A DNA stretch of 64,000 nucleotides. Origin: Nitrosopumilaceae archaeon (GTDB taxonomy: Archaea > Thermoproteota > Nitrososphaeria > Nitrososphaerales > Nitrosopumilaceae). Of the stretch, positions 1-50,287 are shown in pieces. Under the pieces are notes generated by a model. That model was not told the DNA's origin. It ran no database searches and saw nothing but the letters and a program-made list of their open reading frames with translations. The position numbers and the translations under genes were made by a program. The stretch lies in assembly GCA_965200155.1 (NCBI GenBank), contig CBDATR010000010.1, positions 1 to 64,000 on the forward strand, given 5' to 3'. Positions within the stretch are counted from its first letter, which is position 1. Each line of letters begins with the position of its first letter.

Positions 1-295
1 CTAATCAATTCCAGACCATACCACCCGCAGACAAATGGCAAACCGGAGCGCTTCCATGGAATGATTGAGGACGAGGGGACTCTTATTTAAGAGTCCAATG
101 AGATATGACATTATGACAGTCTCCGGGATTATGTTGACTACTACCATGAGAGAAGGTTGCACTTCTCACTGGATATAGATAACGCCGAAACACCGCTTCA
201 GGAATAAAAAGGCGACCCAGACAATTAGGGCAAATGATGCAAAATGGATGGAGCGGGATGCCAATGACTAGCGGACCGACTTTTCATACATTACA
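1..295 (+). mobile_element. IS481-family remnant, right part (runs off window)
   Basis: Encodes PYHPQTNGK.ERF integrase-core motif; ends GACCGACTTTTCATACATTACA; near-identical to copies at 5248, 14208 and 20681. Confidence 0.8.
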
Positions 296-3106: not shown

Positions 3107-3287
3107 AGAACCCGGATCCATTATATTTATATAAATCACGCCGACTAGGAGGTTAAAATGAAAGCTAAATTGATTCCTGCACTTTTACTATCTTTTGTAA
3201 TGGTGTCAGGAGCTGTAACGATAAATGACGCATATGCACAGACAAACACAGAACGGTTGGCAACCGTGGATGAAACAACCATGGATA
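3107..3287 (+). repeat. 181-bp repeat (promoter, RBS, signal peptide), inverted copy at 9947-10127
   Basis: Appears identical base by base to the reverse complement of 9947-10127. Confidence 0.95.
3121..3152 (+). promoter_or_regulatory. TATA box and AGGAGG ribosome-binding site
   Basis: TTTATATA at 3126-3133 and AGGAGG at 3147-3152 ahead of ATG 3158. Confidence 0.65.
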
Positions 3288-4978
3288 CCAACAACATGAT
3301 AGCAGCACTAAATACCGCCATTACCAATATGACCACTAGCATTATGGATATGCTGTCAGAAATGATGTCTTCCATGGATGCCTTGAGTGCCAGCGTGGCT
3401 GGTGTATCTACTACTGTAGATGATGTATCTACTACTGTGGAATCAATAGATTCCAAAGTGGATGGTCTTGCAAATAATATGGCATCTAGTAGCGGTGCAG
3501 TAACTGATGTTGCAAATGCCGTATCTGCACTGTCTAGCGATGTGGCTGACATAAACGAGCATGTACATGAGTACGCAGAGAACTCTGCTGATATTACAAA
3601 CGCTGTAAACGATATAAACACAGAAGTGGGCAACATTGCGGCATCACTGGCTGCAAGCACTAGCGGCTTGTCCGGTCTGCCAGCTTCAGTAGCCAGCATA
3701 CAAGACACTGTAAGCGATATTGCAAGCAGTAACCAGGACGCAGAGATTACACTCCGTCTGAACGCCCTTGAGGAGAGCCTTAACACTCGCTTGGGTAGTT
3801 TGGAGAGTAACATGGCACAAATATCTGATGCACTGAATATAGTGCAAGATGCAGTACAGCCAGTAGTGGCCCCGTTGCCAGAAGTAGAGGAGACGAAGAT
3901 TAGCGGCTTTATATACACCGCAGATTATGCGGGTGCAGTAGCTGCGAAACCCGATGACAACATATACAATTATGACTTTACACTAGAGTGTCTATCTGGA
4001 GCATTTGTCACTGGCATAGAAGTTAAAACCACAAATGCACGTGAAGAAATGAGAGACAACCGTAAGGACTTGAATGACGTTATTAATGACGATGATGCTG
4101 ACCAGGTCTTGCAACAAACTGCCAATAGGCTGTATTATAATCACATGACTATGTGGGATGATGGACCTCTTACAGTCACTAATCCATTCGATACCGATAG
4201 CCATCATTCAAAAATATATGCCGATGGTCGCGTTCTGATTGATACACGATTTTTGATAGGTGATGATAAACCTGTAATATACAATCAACCTATTAAGTTT
4301 AACTTCCAGGAGTTAAGTGCTGGTGATGCTTTGAATATACGTACTGAACTTGACGCAAGTCCATTGCAGTCTGACATTAAGGTTAATGCACCACCGCCTG
4401 ATAATGAAAATAAGATTGATCAAGGAGATGTGTACATATTTGACTTTGAAAAGCTAACCGATGACAATCCTGACGTGGTGAATTTCTGGAGTATTCCACT
4501 CTTTAAAGTCACGGTAACACTACTTAGCGCTGGCGATCCTAGCTGCAGCTTGAGTCTGCCCGAGGTCGTTGGTGATAGATTTACGGATAGGGATAATACT
4601 ATTCTGCTAAATGCACCTACTGAAGGTCCAGAGGAAGCTCTCTTGAAGGACTTTAGCGTTATGGTTGATTGTAACGATATGCCTACTCGTATCCAACAAA
4701 ATAGTGATATCACTTTCGACTTTATAGGAACTGTTGGAGATGTATTTGATAGCGTTAATACCCTTAACCTGATGGCTGGTGGTAAGAACGTGGAATACAA
4801 TATAAACTCTGAAAAAACCCTGACCCCGACGACTAACTCCGATACGTTGCCCATTAAGTGGGATAGTGGTATGCTAGTCGTGTCTGGTTCTATACCAACT
4901 GACGGTGCACTAATAGAAATCACCTATGACACTGTTGCAGGCAATTCATGTACTCAAGTAACTGAGGAAGACCAGTAG
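3158..4978 (+). CDS. secreted acidic surface protein with coiled-coil stalk
   Basis: Signal peptide ending AYA/Q, heptad repeats, acidic beta-rich C-terminal half ending GNSC; paralog of 8250-10076. Confidence 0.8.
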   Translation: MKAKLIPALLLSFVMVSGAVTINDAYAQTNTERLATVDETTMDTNNMIAALNTAITNMTTSIMDMLSEMMSSMDALSASVAGVSTTVDDVSTTVESIDSKVDGLANNMASSSGAVTDVANAVSALSSDVADINEHVHEYAENSADITNAVNDINTEVGNIAASLAASTSGLSGLPASVASIQDTVSDIASSNQDAEITLRLNALEESLNTRLGSLESNMAQISDALNIVQDAVQPVVAPLPEVEETKISGFIYTADYAGAVAAKPDDNIYNYDFTLECLSGAFVTGIEVKTTNAREEMRDNRKDLNDVINDDDADQVLQQTANRLYYNHMTMWDDGPLTVTNPFDTDSHHSKIYADGRVLIDTRFLIGDDKPVIYNQPIKFNFQELSAGDALNIRTELDASPLQSDIKVNAPPPDNENKIDQGDVYIFDFEKLTDDNPDVVNFWSIPLFKVTVTLLSAGDPSCSLSLPEVVGDRFTDRDNTILLNAPTEGPEEALLKDFSVMVDCNDMPTRIQQNSDITFDFIGTVGDVFDSVNTLNLMAGGKNVEYNINSEKTLTPTTNSDTLPIKWDSGMLVVSGSIPTDGALIEITYDTVAGNSCTQVTEEDQ

Positions 4979-5247
4979 TAATTTTTCATTTCTTTTATAT
5001 TTTGTATGCATAGCTAGCTTGCGCCTCATTATGCCGCCTAGTCATTTACGTCCATTCTGTACCACTTTTCCTAACCGACTCTGTGGTTCTTTTGTGAAAC
5101 GCCTTAAGCGGCATCTCCATGCCAAGCGATCAGTGCAGTCTGAGATCTCGTCGTAATACTTGGTATATTTGTGCAGGACACCCGTATGTCCTCATCATAC
5201 TTCTGAGGAGTCGCTCCATCTTGTCATTGGTCTGTGGTCGGTATGAT

Positions 5248-6175
5248 TGTAATGTATGAAAAGTCGGTCCGCTAGTCATTGGCATCTCGCTCCATCCATT
5301 TTGCATCATTTACCCTAATTGTCTGGGTCGCCTTTTTATTCCTGAAGCGGCGTTTCGCCGTTATCTATATCCAGTTAGAAGTGCAATCTTCTCTGATTGT
5401 AGTAGTCCACATAATCCCGGAGACTGTCATAATGCCATATCTCGTCCTCAATCGTTCTATGGAAGCGCTCCAGTTTGCCATTTGTCTGCGGGTGGTATGG
5501 CCTGGAATTGATTAGTATGATTTCTTGATCCAGCAGTTCTTCCTAGAATAGTGGGTTTCCAGTTCTTTTTGCCCTTTTATTGTCCTACGAAACACGCGCC
5601 GTTATCCGAGATGCAGGGGCGCCGAATCTCTTTATCGCAAGTCTCAGTAATAGAACGGCGTTCTCTGAGGTTGCAAGCTCAAATAGTGCCGCTCCGACGA
5701 TGCACCTAGATGCATCATCTATGAGATTCAGTCCCCTGAAGCGCTCATCTTTCATGACATGCCAGTGCCACATTGCATTGGAATATTTACGCTCATAGCG
5801 TACCCACTCTGCAGGTGGTGAGACTGTCGTGCCGTTCTTTTTCATTATGTGATATACTGCGCGATATGTATCATGTCTAAGCCTCTTTGCAATACGTACT
5901 ACTCCGGCGGGATCCTTGCTATATGCTTCAGTTACCATTCGTATCTGGGTGGCGGTGATTGGTATCATAGGCCTGCCCATCTTTACTCGAGTCGTTCCCG
6001 TTCTCTGGTTCACAATCTTCGTACGTGTCTTGTTTCAGGTCTTGAGCTATTTTGGTGGCGGCAACGCCTCTTTTTGTCTTGATTCCTCTGTTATTCTATT
6101 TACCATAGCCTTTCGTGGCTTGTGTAACTTGAACTACCCTACACCGGATCCTGATCGGACTTTTGACATCTTGAG
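5248..6175 (-). mobile_element. IS481-family defective element
   Basis: TGTAATGTATGAAAAGTCGG end; YERKYSNAMWH, DDASR and PQTNGK fragments with frameshifts; far end approximate. Confidence 0.8.
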
Positions 6176-13654: not shown

Positions 13655-14881
13655 AATTTATTATTTCAAAAACGTGGACAAATACACAAGATTTAGTCTC
13701 TGTGGCACATGTGAAAGAGATACCTGAACGGTTACAGGGTGACCTGAACGGTTACGGTAGACGCGGCGGCAACGTAGGACACGGCATGGGGAATCTGTGT
13801 TCAGTCAAAGTCAGTTGTGCAACAAACTTCCTAAACGGTTCCCTTTAATACGGTTAGAATTGAAAAACGTGGGAGTATGGTGCGTGGAGAGTAACGCAAA
13901 ATGATCTATACTCCTACCTCGAACGTTTCAGTGACGACTAGTTTAAGGTCATATGGAGTGTTATAATGATGAAATTTTGGAAGAACTACCAACCGGTAAT
14001 GCTCGCAGGCTATGATAGAGATACAAACAGGGTGCTAGACGGCATAAGGACAGACTTGGATATGGTCCTCAAGTATATAAAAACGGGAAGGCCGCATACC
14101 AAGGATACGCGTGCATACACGGTCCAGTGAGGCACCTCTCACGTATTCAATGTGGTAAGGGCGTGTGCGGTGCAGGCATATTTAGCCACGCCCACCTACA
14201 TTGGCGCTGTAATGTATGAAAAGTCGGTCCGCTAGTCATTGGCATCCCGCTCCATCCATTTTGCATCATTTACCCTAATTGTCTGGATCGCCTTTTTATT
14301 CCTGAAGCGGCGTTTCGCCGTTATCTATCCAGTGAGAAGTGCAATCTTCTCTCATTGTAGTAGTCAACATAATCCCGGAGACTGTCATAATGCCATATCT
14401 CGTCCTCAATCGTTCTATGGAAGCGCTCCAGTTTGCCATTTGTCTGCGGGTGGCATGGTCTGGAACTGATTAGTATGATGTATTGATCCAGCAGTTCTTC
14501 CTAGAATAGCGTGGGTTTCCAGTTCTTTTTGCCCTTTTACTGTCCTACGAAACACGCGCCGTTATCCAAGATGCAGGGGCGCCGAATCGTTTCATTGCCA
14601 GTCTCAGTAATAGAGCGACGTTCTCTGAGGTTGCATGCTCAAATAGTGCCGCTCCGACTATACACCTGGATGCATCAACTATGAGATTCAGTCCCCTGAA
14701 TCGCTCATCTTTCATTACATGCCAGTACCACATTGCATTGGAATATTTACGCTCATAGTGTACCCACTCTGACTTTACATGTGATGATCCTGCCGTGCCG
14801 TTCTTTTTCATTATGCGATATACTGCGCGATATATCATGTCTAAGCCTCTTTGCAATACGTACTACTCCAGCGGGATCCTT

Positions 14882-31225: not shown

Positions 31226-31253
31226 AACTTTTCATCCCCTGGTATCCTGCATC

Positions 31254-31345
31254 GTATGAGTTCACCTGTGTCTAAATTTACGTATAACTGATCGCGACAG
31301 TTAATGTGATTTGTGCATAAAATTCCGGAAGACGTGAACTCATAC
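31254..31345 (-). mobile_element. 92-bp MITE family 1
   Basis: TSD CCTGCATC. Confidence 0.95.
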
Positions 31346-36086: not shown

Positions 36087-36233
36087 GGGGTCGTAGCCTA
36101 GCCTGGTAGGGCGACAGTGTTAAACAGTGTTCACCGCTAAGGGCTCCAGAGGTAAACTAAACCACTGATTGGATGATGTGAGTTTGGAGCTGTAGTGACC
36201 CGTAGGTCGCCGGTTCGATTCCGGTCGGCCCCA
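36087..36233 (+). tRNA. tRNA-Trp(CCA) with two introns (about 36116-36140 and 36150-36197)
   Basis: Removing both gives stem ACGGG/CCCGT around loop CTCCAGA; acceptor GGGGTCG/CGGCCCC. Confidence 0.85.
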
Positions 36234-36235
36234 CA

Positions 36236-38491
36236 TCATCTATTCCTGATTACGTTCAGAGCGGATCCCGCACGGAACCACTCTATCTGTGATGCGCTAT
36301 AGGAGTGGCGTAATTGTATGGTATGTGTAGTTCCGTCCTGATGCTCCAGTATGCAGGATATGGGATGTTCGGGCCTCATTTGCTCAAGTCCAACTATGCT
36401 TAAGCTATCATCCTCCATTATACGGTCATAATCTGATTCGTCCTGGAATGTCAGTGCCAGTATGCCCTGCTTTTTTAGATTCGTTTCGTGTATGCGTGCA
36501 AAACTCCGGGCTATGACTGCGGCGCACCCCAGATATCTTGGCGTCATGGCGGCGTGCTCCCTGCTGCTACCCTCGCCATAGTTGCGGTCTCCCACAATGA
36601 CCCATGGAATATCTTCCTTCTGGTACGCCCTGGCTATGCATGCAAAGTCCTCGGTATCTCCTGTAAGGAAATTCTTGCCCTCTCCGGCCTTGCCCGTGTA
36701 GTAGTTTATCGCTCCCATGAGCATGTTGTCACTAAGGTTGCCCAGGTGCCCGCGATATGACAGCCAGGGGCCTGCCGGTGATATGTGATCAGTGGTGCAC
36801 TTGCCCCTGGCTTTTACCATGAGTCTCATGCCTGTCTTGTCCTTGCCGTCCCACTCATTAAATGGCTCTATTCGCTGGAGGCGCTTGCTGGCTGGATCTA
36901 TGATTACCTCAATGTCCCGGCCATCTTCGGGCGGGGATACGTATATGCCCTCGGGTATGCTGAAACCATTCTCTGGAACCTCGTCCGCTGCCGGTGGCGG
37001 TTCCAGGTGGAATTGTGTCCCGTCCGGCGCACTTAGTGTATCCTGGACGGGATTAAATGAGAGCCTGCCACCCAGTGCCAGCGCGATAACCATCTCGGGA
37101 CTGCCTATGAAGTTGAGCGTACTGCGACTGCCGTCATTTCTCCCGGGAAAGTTGCGATTAAAGGAGGTCACTATGGTATTCTCCTTGCCTGGTACTATCT
37201 CTGGGCGACTCCACTGTCCTATACATGGTCCGCATGCATTTGCCAGGACGGTGGCCCCAATGTCCACCAGTGACTGCATCTGCCCGTCCCGCTCTATGGT
37301 AGCTCTTATCTGCTCAGAGCCGGGCGTAACTAATAGTGGTACTGCCGCCTTCACTCCGTGGGCCTTGGCCTGCTCTGCTATACTTGCCGCTCTTGACATG
37401 TCCTCGTAAGAGGAGTTAGTACAGCTGCCCACAAGAGCCACGGATATATCATCAACGTACTTTTGCGATTCCACGTCCGGCGCCATTGCCGATACGGGGC
37501 GGGCCAAATCCGGAGTATGGGGACCCACTATGTGGGGCTCCAGCGAAGAGAGGTCTATCTCTATTATCCGGTCATAATGATTTTGTGGGTTCTCCAAGAC
37601 CCCGTAATCCGCGGTCAGTATGTCACGGTTCCTGTTGGCTAGCTGAGCTATGGCTGATCGGTTGGTATACTGGAGATACTTTTCCATCCGAGAATCATAC
37701 GGGAATATGGAGCAAGTGGCGCCCACCTCTGCGCCCATATTGGTAATGGTGGCTTTTCCGGTACAACTAATGGACTCTGTTCCCTCGCCAAAATACTCTA
37801 TCACTGAATTGGTGCCGCCGGATACGCTCAGCTCCTTGGCCACCACTAATATGATATCCTTGGGGGATGTCCAGGATCCCAGTTTTCCAGTCAAATGGAC
37901 GCCAATGCGCTTGGGGTACAATACTTCCCAGGATAATCCCGCCATGGATTCGGCTGCATCAACTCCGCCCACGCCTACGGCCAACATGCCCAAACCTCCA
38001 CCGTTGGGCGTGTGCGAGTCAGTTCCTATCATGAGTCCTCCGGGAAAGGCATAATTTTCCAGTACTACCTGGTGTATTATTCCAGCACCGGGTCTCCAAA
38101 AGCCGCATCCGTATCTGGCCGCCGCGGACTGTAGAAACTGGAACACCTCGCTGTTCTCATCAATGGATACAGCCATATCCGCCTTGCCATCTGTGCGTGC
38201 ACGAATGAGATGGTCACAGTGTATGGATACGGGCAATGCCGCCTTGTCCAGTCCAGCCTGCATGAACTGCAAAATTACTGTCTGGCCTGTTACATCCTGT
38301 AACGCCACCCTGTCCGGTTTTAGCGCGATATATCCTTCCGGCTCTCCTTTGGGAATCTGCATCATGTGACCCGCGAGTATCTTTTCTGTTAGCGTCAGTG
38401 GCCTGTTTACCACGCGCCTAAAGGCCTCGATGTTTTGCCGGTTTCTGGCATATACTCCTTGTACCATGTCTGTTGTGGTCTCCACTGGCAT
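36236..38491 (-). CDS. aconitate hydratase (mitochondrial-type)
   Basis: HCDH, GTDSHT, GSCTNSS, ANACGPCIG, TTDHIS and GSSREHA motifs; start placed at MPVETT. Confidence 0.95.
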   Translation of the reverse strand: MPVETTTDMVQGVYARNRQNIEAFRRVVNRPLTLTEKILAGHMMQIPKGEPEGYIALKPDRVALQDVTGQTVILQFMQAGLDKAALPVSIHCDHLIRARTDGKADMAVSIDENSEVFQFLQSAAARYGCGFWRPGAGIIHQVVLENYAFPGGLMIGTDSHTPNGGGLGMLAVGVGGVDAAESMAGLSWEVLYPKRIGVHLTGKLGSWTSPKDIILVVAKELSVSGGTNSVIEYFGEGTESISCTGKATITNMGAEVGATCSIFPYDSRMEKYLQYTNRSAIAQLANRNRDILTADYGVLENPQNHYDRIIEIDLSSLEPHIVGPHTPDLARPVSAMAPDVESQKYVDDISVALVGSCTNSSYEDMSRAASIAEQAKAHGVKAAVPLLVTPGSEQIRATIERDGQMQSLVDIGATVLANACGPCIGQWSRPEIVPGKENTIVTSFNRNFPGRNDGSRSTLNFIGSPEMVIALALGGRLSFNPVQDTLSAPDGTQFHLEPPPAADEVPENGFSIPEGIYVSPPEDGRDIEVIIDPASKRLQRIEPFNEWDGKDKTGMRLMVKARGKCTTDHISPAGPWLSYRGHLGNLSDNMLMGAINYYTGKAGEGKNFLTGDTEDFACIARAYQKEDIPWVIVGDRNYGEGSSREHAAMTPRYLGCAAVIARSFARIHETNLKKQGILALTFQDESDYDRIMEDDSLSIVGLEQMRPEHPISCILEHQDGTTHTIQLRHSYSASQIEWFRAGSALNVIRNR

Positions 38492-38527
38492 GTCATTTCT
38501 TGGAATATGCCTGAATTTATATAGCGC

Positions 38528-38694
38528 GTAACCGTCTAGGTCACTCTTCCACACATTCCACCAAGGCAGAGACTAACTACGGTTATCTCACTGGCAGCGT
38601 GGAATACATGACTGGCATAGGTTCATTCCCTACCGGTTTGGTATATGTTTGCCAATGAAAACACACCACAATTCAGAGCGCCCTAAACGGTCAC
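38528..38694. mobile_element. degenerate MITE family 2
   Basis: GTAACCGTCTAGGTC...CCCTAAACGGTCAC. Confidence 0.6.
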
Positions 38695-38823
38695 CTCCTT
38701 CAATGTGCTAGTATGCCACAGGCTACCTTATCACAATATGGCTGCTGTATAGCACCCACCATAAGTCTTTGCCGGGTATAGGACCGTACTTTTATAGAAC
38801 CACTACTAGAGTAGAATCGCCAG

Positions 38824-40256
38824 ATGATGGATGACATAATTCGGACCGTCGTTATACCGTTGAAAAATAATAGAGAGTTCTCCCGGCGCACCAAGATATT
38901 TGGTCACACGTCAGATTATGTCTATAATAGAGCGGTATCCGAGATCAGTCTTGGTGGCTACTACATACCCGGAACCACTCTTGAATTGAAGCATGATCCG
39001 GCCAAGGTCAAGAATAAGAACGAGTACGCCAAGTCACCATATGGCCTAAAGAAGGGCGCTTCATTATACGTGAATCAGATATCGCATTCTAGAACGGTCA
39101 TCAAGAGACGGTTTACCCGTCCAACAAGAATGGTTTGTTCCTGGAATTGACAAAGTGGCGCCCTGATCTGGAGTGGATGCGCGAGTTACCCTCTAACTAT
39201 GGTCGGGGTGCCATACTACAGGCGTCTGTCGCGTGCAGACGCGCGTACGAGGATCATTCTAATTACATGCCACACCGGCGTGACTGACAGAATCATACTA
39301 TCATGTGTAAGACCACCAATCCGTCGCGGTGAGTTCGAGTTGGACCTGTGCAGTTTTGGTGTGGGGAGAACAACCAAACCAATCGATCATTCCTTGGACA
39401 TGCGCTCATTCAGGATAGTGGAACGAGTAACCAAAGTAGGGGTGCATCTGGGATGGTATTGGGCAGTCCACTGACTCCATTCAGGATAGTGGAACGAGTA
39501 ACCAATAGTAGGGAGCATCAATTCGAGATTCACATCAATATACGGGAGAAACCATCGACCGGCGTTGTTCGCGGCGTGGATGTCGGCGGGAAACATCTAG
39601 CTGTAACAGCTGACACGAATGGCATAACGATGATTCCCAACATGAGACATCGTTCCATATTGCGGGAGATTAGCGCACTCCAGAGTATTAGAACGCGAAA
39701 GGGCAAGCGCAGGAAGCGAAAGATTGAGAAGAAAATCATTCAATTACGACAGAAAGCCAACAACATTGCGAACGACTCCATGAATAGAATGGTCCACACG
39801 GTCACCAAAGGTGTGGACAGGGTAGTACTAGAGGATTTATCACCTATATCAATGACCAGACATGGCGGGAACCACAAAATAACAATGAACCGTTCCATGC
39901 GCGAGAACCGGGTAGGCGAATTCCGCCGGAAAGTAGTACAAAAGTGCGAGGCACTGGGGATTGAATTGGTGGCTGTGCCAGCGAGATACACGAGGGGGCG
40001 GTTTACCCGCCCAACGAGCCAGACCTGTCACGTGTGTGGAAACGTTGAGATAAATCACGATCAACTAGGGACACTTTCAATATGTAACCAGGAATTTCAC
40101 GCCGATATCAACGCGGCGTTTAGTAACCGGTTTCTCTGTATGGGGCGGCAGAGCGTGTCGTCCGGGGGGCGGTTTACCCGCCCAACCGGAGGCGTCAGGG
40201 CAGGAATAATGGCGACAATCCAAAGCCATGTACTGCCTAGGAACGAGGTGCCATGA
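38824..40256 (+). pseudogene. tnpB: TnpB (IS200/IS605-type RNA-guided nuclease) pseudogene
   Basis: YVYNRA, GVDVG, VVLEDL, YT..SQTCHVCG and HADINAA motifs; several frameshifts and insertions. Confidence 0.9.
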
Positions 40257-40274
40257 AAATCATAGTCAAAGACT

Positions 40275-41110
40275 TATGGCGACCACCATATCTAAGACAG
40301 AATCTATAATGGCACTATCCACAAACATTCCAGCGACAGAACATGTAGCAGCGATACAAATCATCTACAAATGTATAATCCAAGATTTTGATGCATTATC
40401 TATAATACTGTTCGGCTCTATGGCTCGTAGCGACCATGGCAAGTACAGTGACATCGATATCATGGTTGTGATGCCAGAAGGCACCAATACAAGCGTGGTA
40501 CATTATAGTATAGCGAACACCATAATTCTTTGGCATGCAAGACAGAGGCGCATGGCCGCAACAACAGTTGTGGCAGCCAGTATAGCGAACACCATAATTC
40601 TTTGGCATGCAAGACAGGGATTGTATGTGACATGTAGATTTGTTACCCAAGGACTCATGGTGACCGCTATATTCCTGCTGCCCGATGGATTTGGACATAG
40701 GTGTGGATACAATAGTGACAACACCGTTAATACTGGAGACAAAATCACATCTGCGCGGTTCCGTACAAAGAATGGCATACTGGGAGGTATAGAATTATAC
40801 GGTAATCACAAACTAAAATACGCCTTTGGGCATACTGATGACGCGAAGTCAGGATCCATATTGCTCGAAATTGCCCTTGATGATATTCAGTCAGCCATTG
40901 AAAATGACTCCGGCAAGACACCATACAAGAGTACGTGCGTACAATCCCCCCCAACAGGCGATAGAAAAGGCGCTCAAGTCTGTAAGGTCTGGTCCGGAAT
41001 AGAACCGAAACACATCAATTGAAATATCTCTATGCCAAGGTTCCGTCCGATTAGGGGATAAGCGCATCAGTAACAGATTCGGATGACATACCTAAACAGA
41101 ACATAGCTTC
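40275..41110 (+). pseudogene. minimal nucleotidyltransferase-HEPN fusion pseudogene
   Basis: LFGSMAR...SDID motif; frameshifted HEPN-like QQAIEK..K; MITE insertion; ends approximate. Confidence 0.7.
40509..40671. mobile_element. MITE family 3 (91 bp, TA-flanked) with a duplicated left end
   Basis: TIR TATAGCGAACACCAT / ATGGTGACCGCTATA; homologous to 35893-35983. Confidence 0.75.
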
Positions 41111-50094: not shown

Positions 50095-50186
50095 GTATGA
50101 GTTCACGTCTTCCGGAATCTTGTGCACAAATCACATTAACTGTCGCGATCAGTTGTGCGTAAATTTAGACACAGGTGAACTCATAC
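50095..50186 (+). mobile_element. 92-bp MITE family 1
   Basis: TSD TATTCCTG. Confidence 0.95.
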
Positions 50187-50287
50187 TATTCCTGCGGGGA
50201 CTCGTTCAATATATCGTCTATGCTTGCGGTGACCTAAACTTGAACGGTTACTATATCAGTCAAAATCAGGGTTCACCCGTGGTGGCA

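Follow-up and report, generated by a model that had tools for sequence, protein, structure and literature searches.

The window analysed here, a 64,000-nt stretch of DNA from an archaeon of the Nitrosopumilaceae, contains a broken tnpB gene in which three hairpins of 19 or 20 nt lie between identical 4-nt sequences. How did such short palindromes come to interrupt a gene, and do they belong to a class of mobile DNA? An initial annotation of the locus regarded them as true insertions in one tnpB, either minimal, REP-like mobile hairpins or the fixed footprint of an excised element. The genome in which we examined these proposals is a 2.38-Mb assembly, 87.6% complete, of an ammonia-oxidising archaeon (AmoA was found in the genome, and one tRNA has a long intron); the sequencing runs holding the host sequence carry the label sponge metagenome.

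Three hairpin units in a decayed tnpB gene

All three hairpins were found where they had been annotated, each with its 4-nt direct repeats (Table 1). A degenerate 18-mer, GRCGGTTTACCCGYCCAA, matched the window three times at up to 2 mismatches against 0.01 expected, and three matches were reached in none of 100 shuffles. Folded as single-stranded DNA, the three units formed stems of 5-6 bp with 5-nt loops (-7.8, -11.5 and -4.6 kcal/mol; z -2.6 to -3.3). The variant described in the 39106 copy was borne out as a G-C to A-T double change in the stem, and double changes of this sort preserve the pairing. Such compensatory changes need not imply selection, as intrastrand template switching can also correct a palindrome.

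Table 1. Features of the window, with positions counted from its first nucleotide
Feature	Position	Position with repeats	Strand	Repeats or basis
Decayed tnpB-only IS (IS200/IS605-type TnpB pseudogene), host of the three hairpins	38746..40290		+	BLAST against 54 paralogous loci
tnpB N-terminal fragment, runs into the site-1 unit	38824..39150		+	stretch before the unit aligns with orthologue N-termini
tnpB C-terminal fragment (302 aa), containing the units of sites 2 and 3	39348..40256		+	reading frame; Pfam
Site 1, 19-nt unit AGACGGTTTACCCGTCCAA	39106-39124	39102..39128	+	CAAG, 39102-39105 and 39125-39128
Site 2, 20-nt unit GGGGCGGTTTACCCGCCCAA	39995-40014	39991..40018	+	CGAG, 39991-39994 and 40015-40018
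Site 3, 20-nt unit GGGGCGGTTTACCCGCCCAA	40166-40185	40162..40189	+	CCGG, 40162-40165 and 40186-40189
Second hairpin GGGACTCTTATTTAAGAGTCCAA in the rve-type IS copy at the window start	76..98		+	

The C-terminal fragment matches the Pfam domains OrfB_IS605 (PF01385, E 1.7e-8) and Cas12f1-like_TNB (PF07282, E 3.7e-10) and contains YTSQTC..CxxC. The host gene is thus a TnpB gene, with its motif split by the site-2 unit and its frame broken. The site-1 unit lengthens the gene by 23 nt, the translation reading TVIK, then the unit, then NGLFLELTKW in a different frame. This is a frameshift, as had been proposed, because both flanking frames align with one continuous stretch of the orthologue. The site-2 unit adds 24 nt (8 aa) within YT|SQTC. 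In the C-terminal fragment, which translates as ARYT[RGRFTRPT]SQTCHVCG and SS[GGRFTRPT]GGV, the units of sites 2 and 3 are both read through in frame.

Intact orthologues of the same genus carry no insert at site 1, 2 or 3. They read KYTSQTCHVCG or AYTSQTCHVCS, and LKYGMFKQLTEW, so that excision of the 39995 copy does restore YTSQTC as it stands unbroken in these proteins. The orthologues are 453-471 aa long, against a longest open frame of at most 325 aa in any copy of the tnpB IS. The hairpin motif is absent from the intact orthologues, and paralogous IS copies have empty sites; these observations established that the hairpins are true insertions.

Filled and empty sites among the tnpB copies

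The tnpB IS has 54 merged BLAST loci in the genome, with 65-93% identity. A genome-wide search for the hairpin motif, with repeats and targets tabulated, gave 60 copies at no more than 3 substitutions; at no more than one substitution there were 58 copies against none for the reversed control. By position, 21 copies and one site-1/site-3 hybrid belong to site 1, 23 to site 2 and 4 to site 3, and the rest lie in tandem arrays (7) or elsewhere (4). The class is wider, with other hairpin sequences, other host genes and tandem arrays (see below). The three sites are real, as claimed, but they are not private to the tnpB of the window: 49 of the 60 copies occupy the same three sites of the decayed IS family, and therefore most copies were probably inherited with the IS.

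That the motif is a library adapter or an assembly artefact has a negligible probability. The 60 copies include site-specific variants and point mutations, and both MITE insertion and recombination have occurred within units. Furthermore, gapless site-1 and site-2 hairpins occur in contigs of two RNA-library runs as well as of two separate DNA studies, which shows that they are not the artefact of one assembly. The left junction of site 3 was bridged by none of the contig pieces listed. Among the same pieces, the contigs of the four runs showed no joint that skips a unit and no presence/absence variant of the units, contigs being such as to hide rare variants.

Filled and empty sites were counted in the IS copies that could be anchored. 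Site 1 was filled in 22 of 23 copies, always with the GAC..GTC variant and always with +23 nt, and empty in one; altogether it is empty in the IS copies at C10:272586, C43:104900 and C24:255278, two of which lie beyond the anchored set. Site 2 was filled in 20 of 23 copies and empty in 3. Site 3 was filled in 24 of 29, in most of them by a 26-nt relative, GGGGCGGGGAACCGTTCCCCGCCCAA, and empty in 5. Depending on the IS lineage, this hot spot contains 0 to 3 units, two- and three-unit copies both being present.

The variants are site-specific: GAC..GTC is always found at site 1 and GGC..GCC at site 2. As one and the same variant recurs at a given site in about 20 paralogous IS copies, the original events were probably few and copying of the IS multiplied them. 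In a tree of 25 tnpB IS copies with the units masked, the filled and empty states were homoplastic. On well-supported branches, the both-empty state must have changed at least twice, and one copy with a filled site 3 has an empty copy as its sister (SH-aLRT 97). Units were therefore also gained more than once, lost precisely or recombined. The likeliest history is that there were few insertions into an ancestral IS, which was then copied in an already disabled form. Three old insertions would have struck the ancestor of the tnpB IS family, one breaking the frame and one splitting YTSQTC, and the IS of the window would be one decayed descendant of an ancestor that already carried them. Most hairpin copies probably came by descent inside a dead IS and not by insertion of their own.

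Since TnpB elements encode a guide RNA scaffold near the right end of the IS, the hairpins could instead be a native module of the tnpB IS, for example a guide (omega) RNA stem at site 3, spread by local multiplication and by gene conversion or recombination and not mobile in its own right. Site 3 is indeed ~105 nt from the right end, where the scaffold is expected, and one to three units of differing kinds are present there in almost all IS lineages. Just upstream, native sequence (ATGGGGCGGCAGAGCG) is similar to the beginning of a 37-nt unit together with the repeat before it, CCATGGGGCGGCATAGCC. The retention of an own variant at each site fits this explanation too, and units do mediate recombination, as seen in a deletion from unit to unit at C5:39466, which fuses site 1 with site 3, and at C22:6040-6300, where an array is fused to tnpB at site 2. 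We nevertheless consider a native module unlikely. Five IS copies and all intact orthologues have no site-3 unit at all, the flanks of the C35 copy keep the bases of their own lineage right up to the unit, against conversion tracts, and unrelated hosts (a Type ISP gene, an rve IS and intergenic arrays) carry units with 4-nt duplications of their own.

Units in other hosts and their common architecture

A screen for indels between paralogues (self-BLAST of the genome, indels of 17-60 nt, 905 segments) yielded, as its largest cluster (228), a second hairpin of 23 nt, with one copy at the start of the window (Table 1). It has 54 copies at 52 loci, 48 of them identical. Fifty copies occupy one site (site A) of a ~960-bp rve-type IS, directly after PYHPQTNGKLERFHGMIEDE, where an in-frame TAA is introduced. 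In 80 IS copies with both anchors, site A was empty (4 nt) in 33, held one unit in 43 and two units in 2, and contained other inserts in 2. In 25 of the 45 filled copies the repeats are unequal (left CGAG, right TGAG), and the insertions are thus not all recent. Away from the IS, variants of the second hairpin with perfect repeats were found at C10:486719, C24:238890 and C5:37824 (CAAG at two, CTAG at one), one of the three having a compensatory C-G to T-A change. Site B of the same IS holds a third hairpin, GAATCGCGAAGCGATTCAG, with CAAG(A) repeats, in 3 of 80 copies and is empty in 77.

Across 36 rve-IS copies, no 23-nt window diverges less than the second hairpin (0.24%, with 3.2% as the mean and 0.75% as the minimum of the flanks, and none of 229 flank windows as low), a result that is modestly significant, the flank divergence being concentrated at a few subfamily sites. 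Such low divergence fits spread of the hairpin later than divergence of the IS, or constraint on the hairpin. Decay of CpG was rejected as the cause of the conservation, CpG positions being 2.8% and other positions 3.3% diverged. The rve-IS tree is star-like; it leaves the number of gains unconstrained and is compatible with a single origin.

Further variants have GGGG..CCCAA ends with other interiors: a 26-nt form, a form with a CAAAG loop, a 21-nt CCATTC form, GGGGCTACAAAGTAGCCCAA and a 37-nt form. An intact Type ISP restriction-modification ORF of 806 aa contains the unit GGGGCGGCAAAGCCGCCCAA between CAAG repeats, with the frame kept and 8 aa added. The empty site is seen in its tandem paralogue, which has GTGAAGAAC in place of the GTCAAG+20 nt+CAAGAAC of the filled gene. 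Mixed tandem arrays sit downstream of a multi-copy FN3-domain gene and elsewhere. The identical 20-nt unit is repeated with a period of 24 at C35:29379-29516 (six units, a case of tandem amplification of a single variant) and at C5:64444, and the 37-nt form makes arrays with a period of 41. In one case a MITE, flanked by an 8-bp duplication of its own, interrupts a unit. No Rfam family matches the window region or the arrays.

All these units share one architecture: a 4-nt repeat, 1 nt (G or A), a perfect hairpin, 2 nt (AA or AG) and the same 4-nt repeat. Units are 19-37 nt in size, with stems of 6-10 bp in the shared architecture. The repeats CAAG, CGAG, CTAG, CCGG and CCAG fit CNRG, and TGAG and CCAT are found in arrays. 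Identical 4-mers flanked 16 of 63 perfect GGG..CCCAA hairpins against none of 158 with seven control tails, and in a scan of 4,167 perfect hairpins they were found 65 times at offset (1,2) and 68 times at (2,1), against 10-25 times in each of the other 14 offset cells and 16.3 expected, the excess in both tests being carried by multi-copy families, one of them doubtful. A candidate fourth family, GGAAATCTTGTGTGAGATTTCGT (GGAAATC..., ATTT flanks, ~50 scan hits), was not counted; it is coding sequence of a multi-copy gene, and with no empty-site evidence it may be due to chance. An exact 4-nt duplication is backed by an empty site at sites 1-3 of the tnpB IS, in the Type ISP gene and at sites A and B of the rve IS. 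Independent insertion events are few, about ten.

The arrays themselves could be the source of the inserts. Units would then be patches copied from arrays in repair or replication restart, by microhomology-mediated template switching and with no integrase. GC hairpins can stall replication, the period-24 arrays are available as templates, and every genic insert equals exactly one array period. On the other hand, the whole 4-mer is duplicated, its second copy is that of the target (CGAG or CCGG) and not the array linker TGAG, and neither site 3 nor the Type ISP gene shows microhomology for a return switch, so that a staggered cut fits better than template switching. Units with the CAAAG loop and the 26-nt unit also have no array template in the assembly. 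Copying from arrays appears decidedly improbable.

Insertions in genes have lengths of 23, 24, 27 or 30 nt, and the six that we inspected were all in sense orientation, a uniformity relative to the sense strand that is suggestive only. These lengths and this orientation, together with the Type ISP gene remaining open, might be taken to mean that the inserts do no harm because gene expression eliminates them: the archaeal splicing endonuclease could excise them as a mini-intron, or translation could bypass them, as with mitochondrial byp elements. At site 1, the copy in the window has the codon AAG both before and after the 23-nt gap, but most site-1 copies have AGG before the unit and AAG after it. 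A bulge-helix-bulge, in which exon and intron form a 4-bp helix between two 3-nt bulges, could not be drawn by inspection: the repeats are direct, and there is no pairing of the flanks with the unit as such a structure would require. In the contigs of the two RNA libraries the units of sites 1 and 2 are retained, and neither shows a gap or joint, carry-over of DNA being possible in these libraries. In addition, all tnpB copies are otherwise broken, and the 23-nt unit has an in-frame TAA. Removal during expression is hardly credible.

Mode of insertion and likeness to known elements

The hairpins of 19-37 bases rank among the smallest transposon-like insertions seen and, as the initial annotation held, are far smaller than MITEs. 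They form a real class of lineage-specific, ultra-short palindromic insertion units. As to how they move, we lean slightly towards lineage-specific insertion elements that are mobilised in trans. Most probably, an enzyme supplied in trans would cut the target with a 4-bp stagger and join a copy of the unit, and gap filling would then duplicate the 4 nt. The ends of the units are kept and the interiors vary (TTTAC, CAAAG, GGAACCGTTCC or a 23-nt interior), as in MITE families, which suggests that a trans-acting protein may recognise the base of the hairpin. Some variants, such as that with the CAAAG loop, have no second copy in the assembly as a possible donor. Copy numbers would also grow passively, through copying of the host IS, tandem amplification or merging in place, and recombination between units.

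In agreement with the initial annotation, no responsible enzyme is visible: no Y1/HUH gene and no parent element was found. The Y1/HUH transposase profile (PF01797, RAYT) had no match in the genome, with the control positive in 6 of 14 genomes; because of the incompleteness of the assembly, this does not prove absence. When ends of this kind with matching 4-mers were paired within 6 kb, nothing but arrays and scattered single pairs came up, and none of the pairs bounded a larger repeated element. As a donor enzyme the rve IS is not obvious, since it generates target duplications of ~8-9 bp, and its ends differ. An IS5/Harbinger-like IS with ~25 open copies was rejected as donor, its ends and TA-type flanks being unrelated (its right end was not delimited). 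The ends of the tnpB IS and of the 93-bp MITE of this genome (8-bp duplication) also differ from those of the units. A likeness to integron attC sites (the end GCCCAAC fits RYYYAAC) was rejected because the other arm has no matching core, and an origin from restriction sites was rejected because only site 3 (TCCGGA) is palindromic.

These searches also bear on the second proposal of the initial annotation, that the units are fixed footprints of an excised, larger cut-and-paste transposon. Footprints do retain both target repeats and terminal bases, and the ends of the units are conserved and inverted. However, there is no larger element with these ends, the abundant MITE and both ISs examined differ in their ends and in duplication length, and identical footprints at many sites would be unusual. 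We consider a footprint very unlikely, and this part of the annotation is left without support.

Neither the 20-mer nor the 23-mer was found in 40 relatives. In 185,579 species genomes there was one match, at chance level, and metagenome contigs and viral contigs gave none. Matches to GGGCGG..CCGCCCAA in relatives were at about the control level; in genome G009, repeated matches sit within larger repeats, without duplications. By sequence comparison, then, the units appear restricted to one genome among those compared and would constitute a lineage-specific class. The words 'MITE' and 'hairpin' are both absent from a survey of thaumarchaeal mobile elements (PMC6563490), and literature searches, at the level of their listings, gave nothing comparable for archaea.

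Insertion in trans by an integrating enzyme can be approached through before-and-after pairs, namely the 33 empty and 45 filled copies in one IS and the filled and empty tandem paralogues of the Type ISP gene. Such pairs define the inserted unit to the base, together with the 4-nt duplication and the CNRG target, and provide a basis for enzyme candidates and integration assays. The units also have consequences for their host, as they break or lengthen genes (by frameshift, in-frame stop or +8 aa), could confound gene calling in MAGs of symbionts, and promote deletions and fusions between copies. A bolder claim, which we hold as a doubtful possibility, is that the 19-26-nt units, with their CNRG target, 4-bp duplication and single transcriptional orientation, are integrated by a host or IS-encoded enzyme and are the smallest self-contained mobile DNA so far described in a cellular chromosome, still active and a prokaryotic counterpart of GC clusters. 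If it were true, they would offer a tractable system to find an enzyme that moves palindromes. REPs, GC clusters of mitochondria and hairpin elements occur widely, and the movement of the smallest ones is largely unexplained.

MITEs, which are usually 50-500 bp, resemble the units in being non-coding and in having inverted ends (here arms of 6-10 bp), a fixed-length target duplication, a variable interior and conserved termini. They differ in being larger and in sharing their ends with a parent IS, whereas for the units, of 19-37 nt, the search gave no parent IS. Rickettsia palindromic elements (~100-150 bp) are bacterial, larger and unrelated in sequence. One of them, RPE-1, occurs in a gene (excerpt of PMC3733652).

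Bacterial REPs are GC-rich stem-loops of 20-40 nt with many copies, located mostly downstream of genes, singly or in clusters, and sometimes within genes; they are specific to lineages, and a dedicated transposase is missing for some families (PMC3733652, in excerpt). The units described here, whose two main sequences number 60 and 54 copies, resemble REPs in size, stem-loop shape, clustering, location mostly downstream of genes with some intragenic, and lineage specificity. One end of a REP bears a GTAG or CGTC tag, REP families are associated with RAYT tyrosine transposases, and the word 'duplication' is absent from the text of the same paper (PMC3733652). In contrast, the ends of the units are G...CCAA or A...AG with no GTAG or CGTC tag, a 4-nt target is duplicated, and the archaeal host genome showed no Y1/HUH gene. 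REPs are the nearest prokaryotic analogy for the minimal mobile hairpin of the annotation, but neither their tag nor a RAYT gene was found.

Mitochondrial GC clusters, like the units here, are known to insert into coding genes. In yeast, clusters such as GC42 are short palindromes with AG or ACT direct repeats resembling target duplications; they are polymorphic, merge and shuffle into composite clusters, and their mobilising enzyme is unknown (PMC4478555, in excerpt). The units share with them, as far as that excerpt goes, the palindrome, the short direct repeats, the polymorphism and the merging into composites. GC clusters differ in belonging to an organelle genome and in having repeats of 2-3 nt, as against an archaeal chromosome and 4-nt CNRG repeats here; the units are also smaller (mostly 19-26 nt), and one family has an AT-rich stem and loop. 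By analogy, the best reading is that these units may represent an archaeal counterpart of REPs and mitochondrial GC clusters.

Insertion sequences and MITEs of the source genome

Besides the hairpin units (19-37-nt palindromic insertions between 4-nt direct repeats), the genome of the source organism (G000) carries several larger mobile elements (see the table for coordinates). One of them is a MITE of 92-95 bp, with perfect terminal repeats (GTATGAGTTCAC...GTGAACTCATAC) and an 8-bp target duplication. Hundreds of copies, 95-100% identical, were found in the genome, and ISs, hairpin units and arrays (tandem runs of such units) all serve as its targets.

The rve-type IS (~960 bp; ~80 copies) has termini of the sequence TCAATAGTACG... 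and generates a target duplication of its own of ~8-9 bp. The 23-nt hairpin was present in 45 of the 80 copies, where it introduces an in-frame TAA four codons past the ERFH motif. An IS5/Harbinger-like IS (DDE_Tnp_4), whose left end is (T)AGACCGTATGCG, occupies the listed locus plus ~25 others. Because ~25 frames of 390-414 aa are open and 95-98% identical, this IS appears, from its sequences, to have been active recently.

Coordinates of the features described (window positions unless a contig is named)
Feature	Location
rve-type IS copies	near 5465; near 14423; another, with hairpin at 76-98
92-95-bp MITE copies	31249-31345; 50095-50189
tRNA	36087-36233
Aconitase-like ORF	36236-38554
17-nt segment	38804-38820
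Direct duplication in tnpB pseudogene	39407-39441 / 39478-39513
Nucleotidyltransferase ORF	40228-41022
Direct duplication in nucleotidyltransferase ORF	40507-40545 / 40579-40617
Segment skipped in DNA contigs	40487 to 40712
Type ISP paralogues, tandem	L052 (G000:C22:24000-33000) 7-2672 and 3200-5620
IS5/Harbinger-like IS, example	C24:315827-316321
FN3-repeat gene region	G000:C5:62400-64500
Small ORF with four hairpin units	G000:C35:18700-22500 (L053 205-3986)

The tnpB pseudogene and its neighbours

The tnpB IS has, close to its left terminus, a 17-nt segment, TACTAGAGTAGAATCGC, that forms no clear hairpin; its presence varied among paralogues of this IS, accounting for 16 indel segments in the paralogue-indel screen. 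Short internal direct duplications were seen in the tnpB pseudogene and in the adjoining nucleotidyltransferase ORF, and 224 nt of the latter were skipped in DNA contigs from two runs. Adjoining an ORF that is aconitase-like by its sequence only, there is a tRNA whose match extends over 147 nt versus the 71 positions of the model, and which therefore contains a long intron.

Hairpin units and arrays at other loci

Contig C22 carries a Type ISP restriction-modification gene, comprising a methylase and a C-terminal specificity domain, as two paralogues in tandem. The first is broken into two; the second retains an open frame despite a 24-nt hairpin insert.

A multi-copy gene region of ~1.8 kb, encoding an FN3-repeat protein, has ~10 paralogous regions, on C9, C24, C34, C35, C10, C22 and C43. 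The gene is followed on its 3' side by arrays of 37-nt units (period 41), a conserved spacer of ~150 nt and mixed hairpin units of 20-21 nt, with TGAG between the latter.

On C35, four different hairpin units are read through in the 3' half of a small ORF. Of the ORFs flanking it, judged by eye, one looks like a PD-(D/E)XK nuclease and the other like a ThyX-type enzyme; this region is possibly an integrated element.
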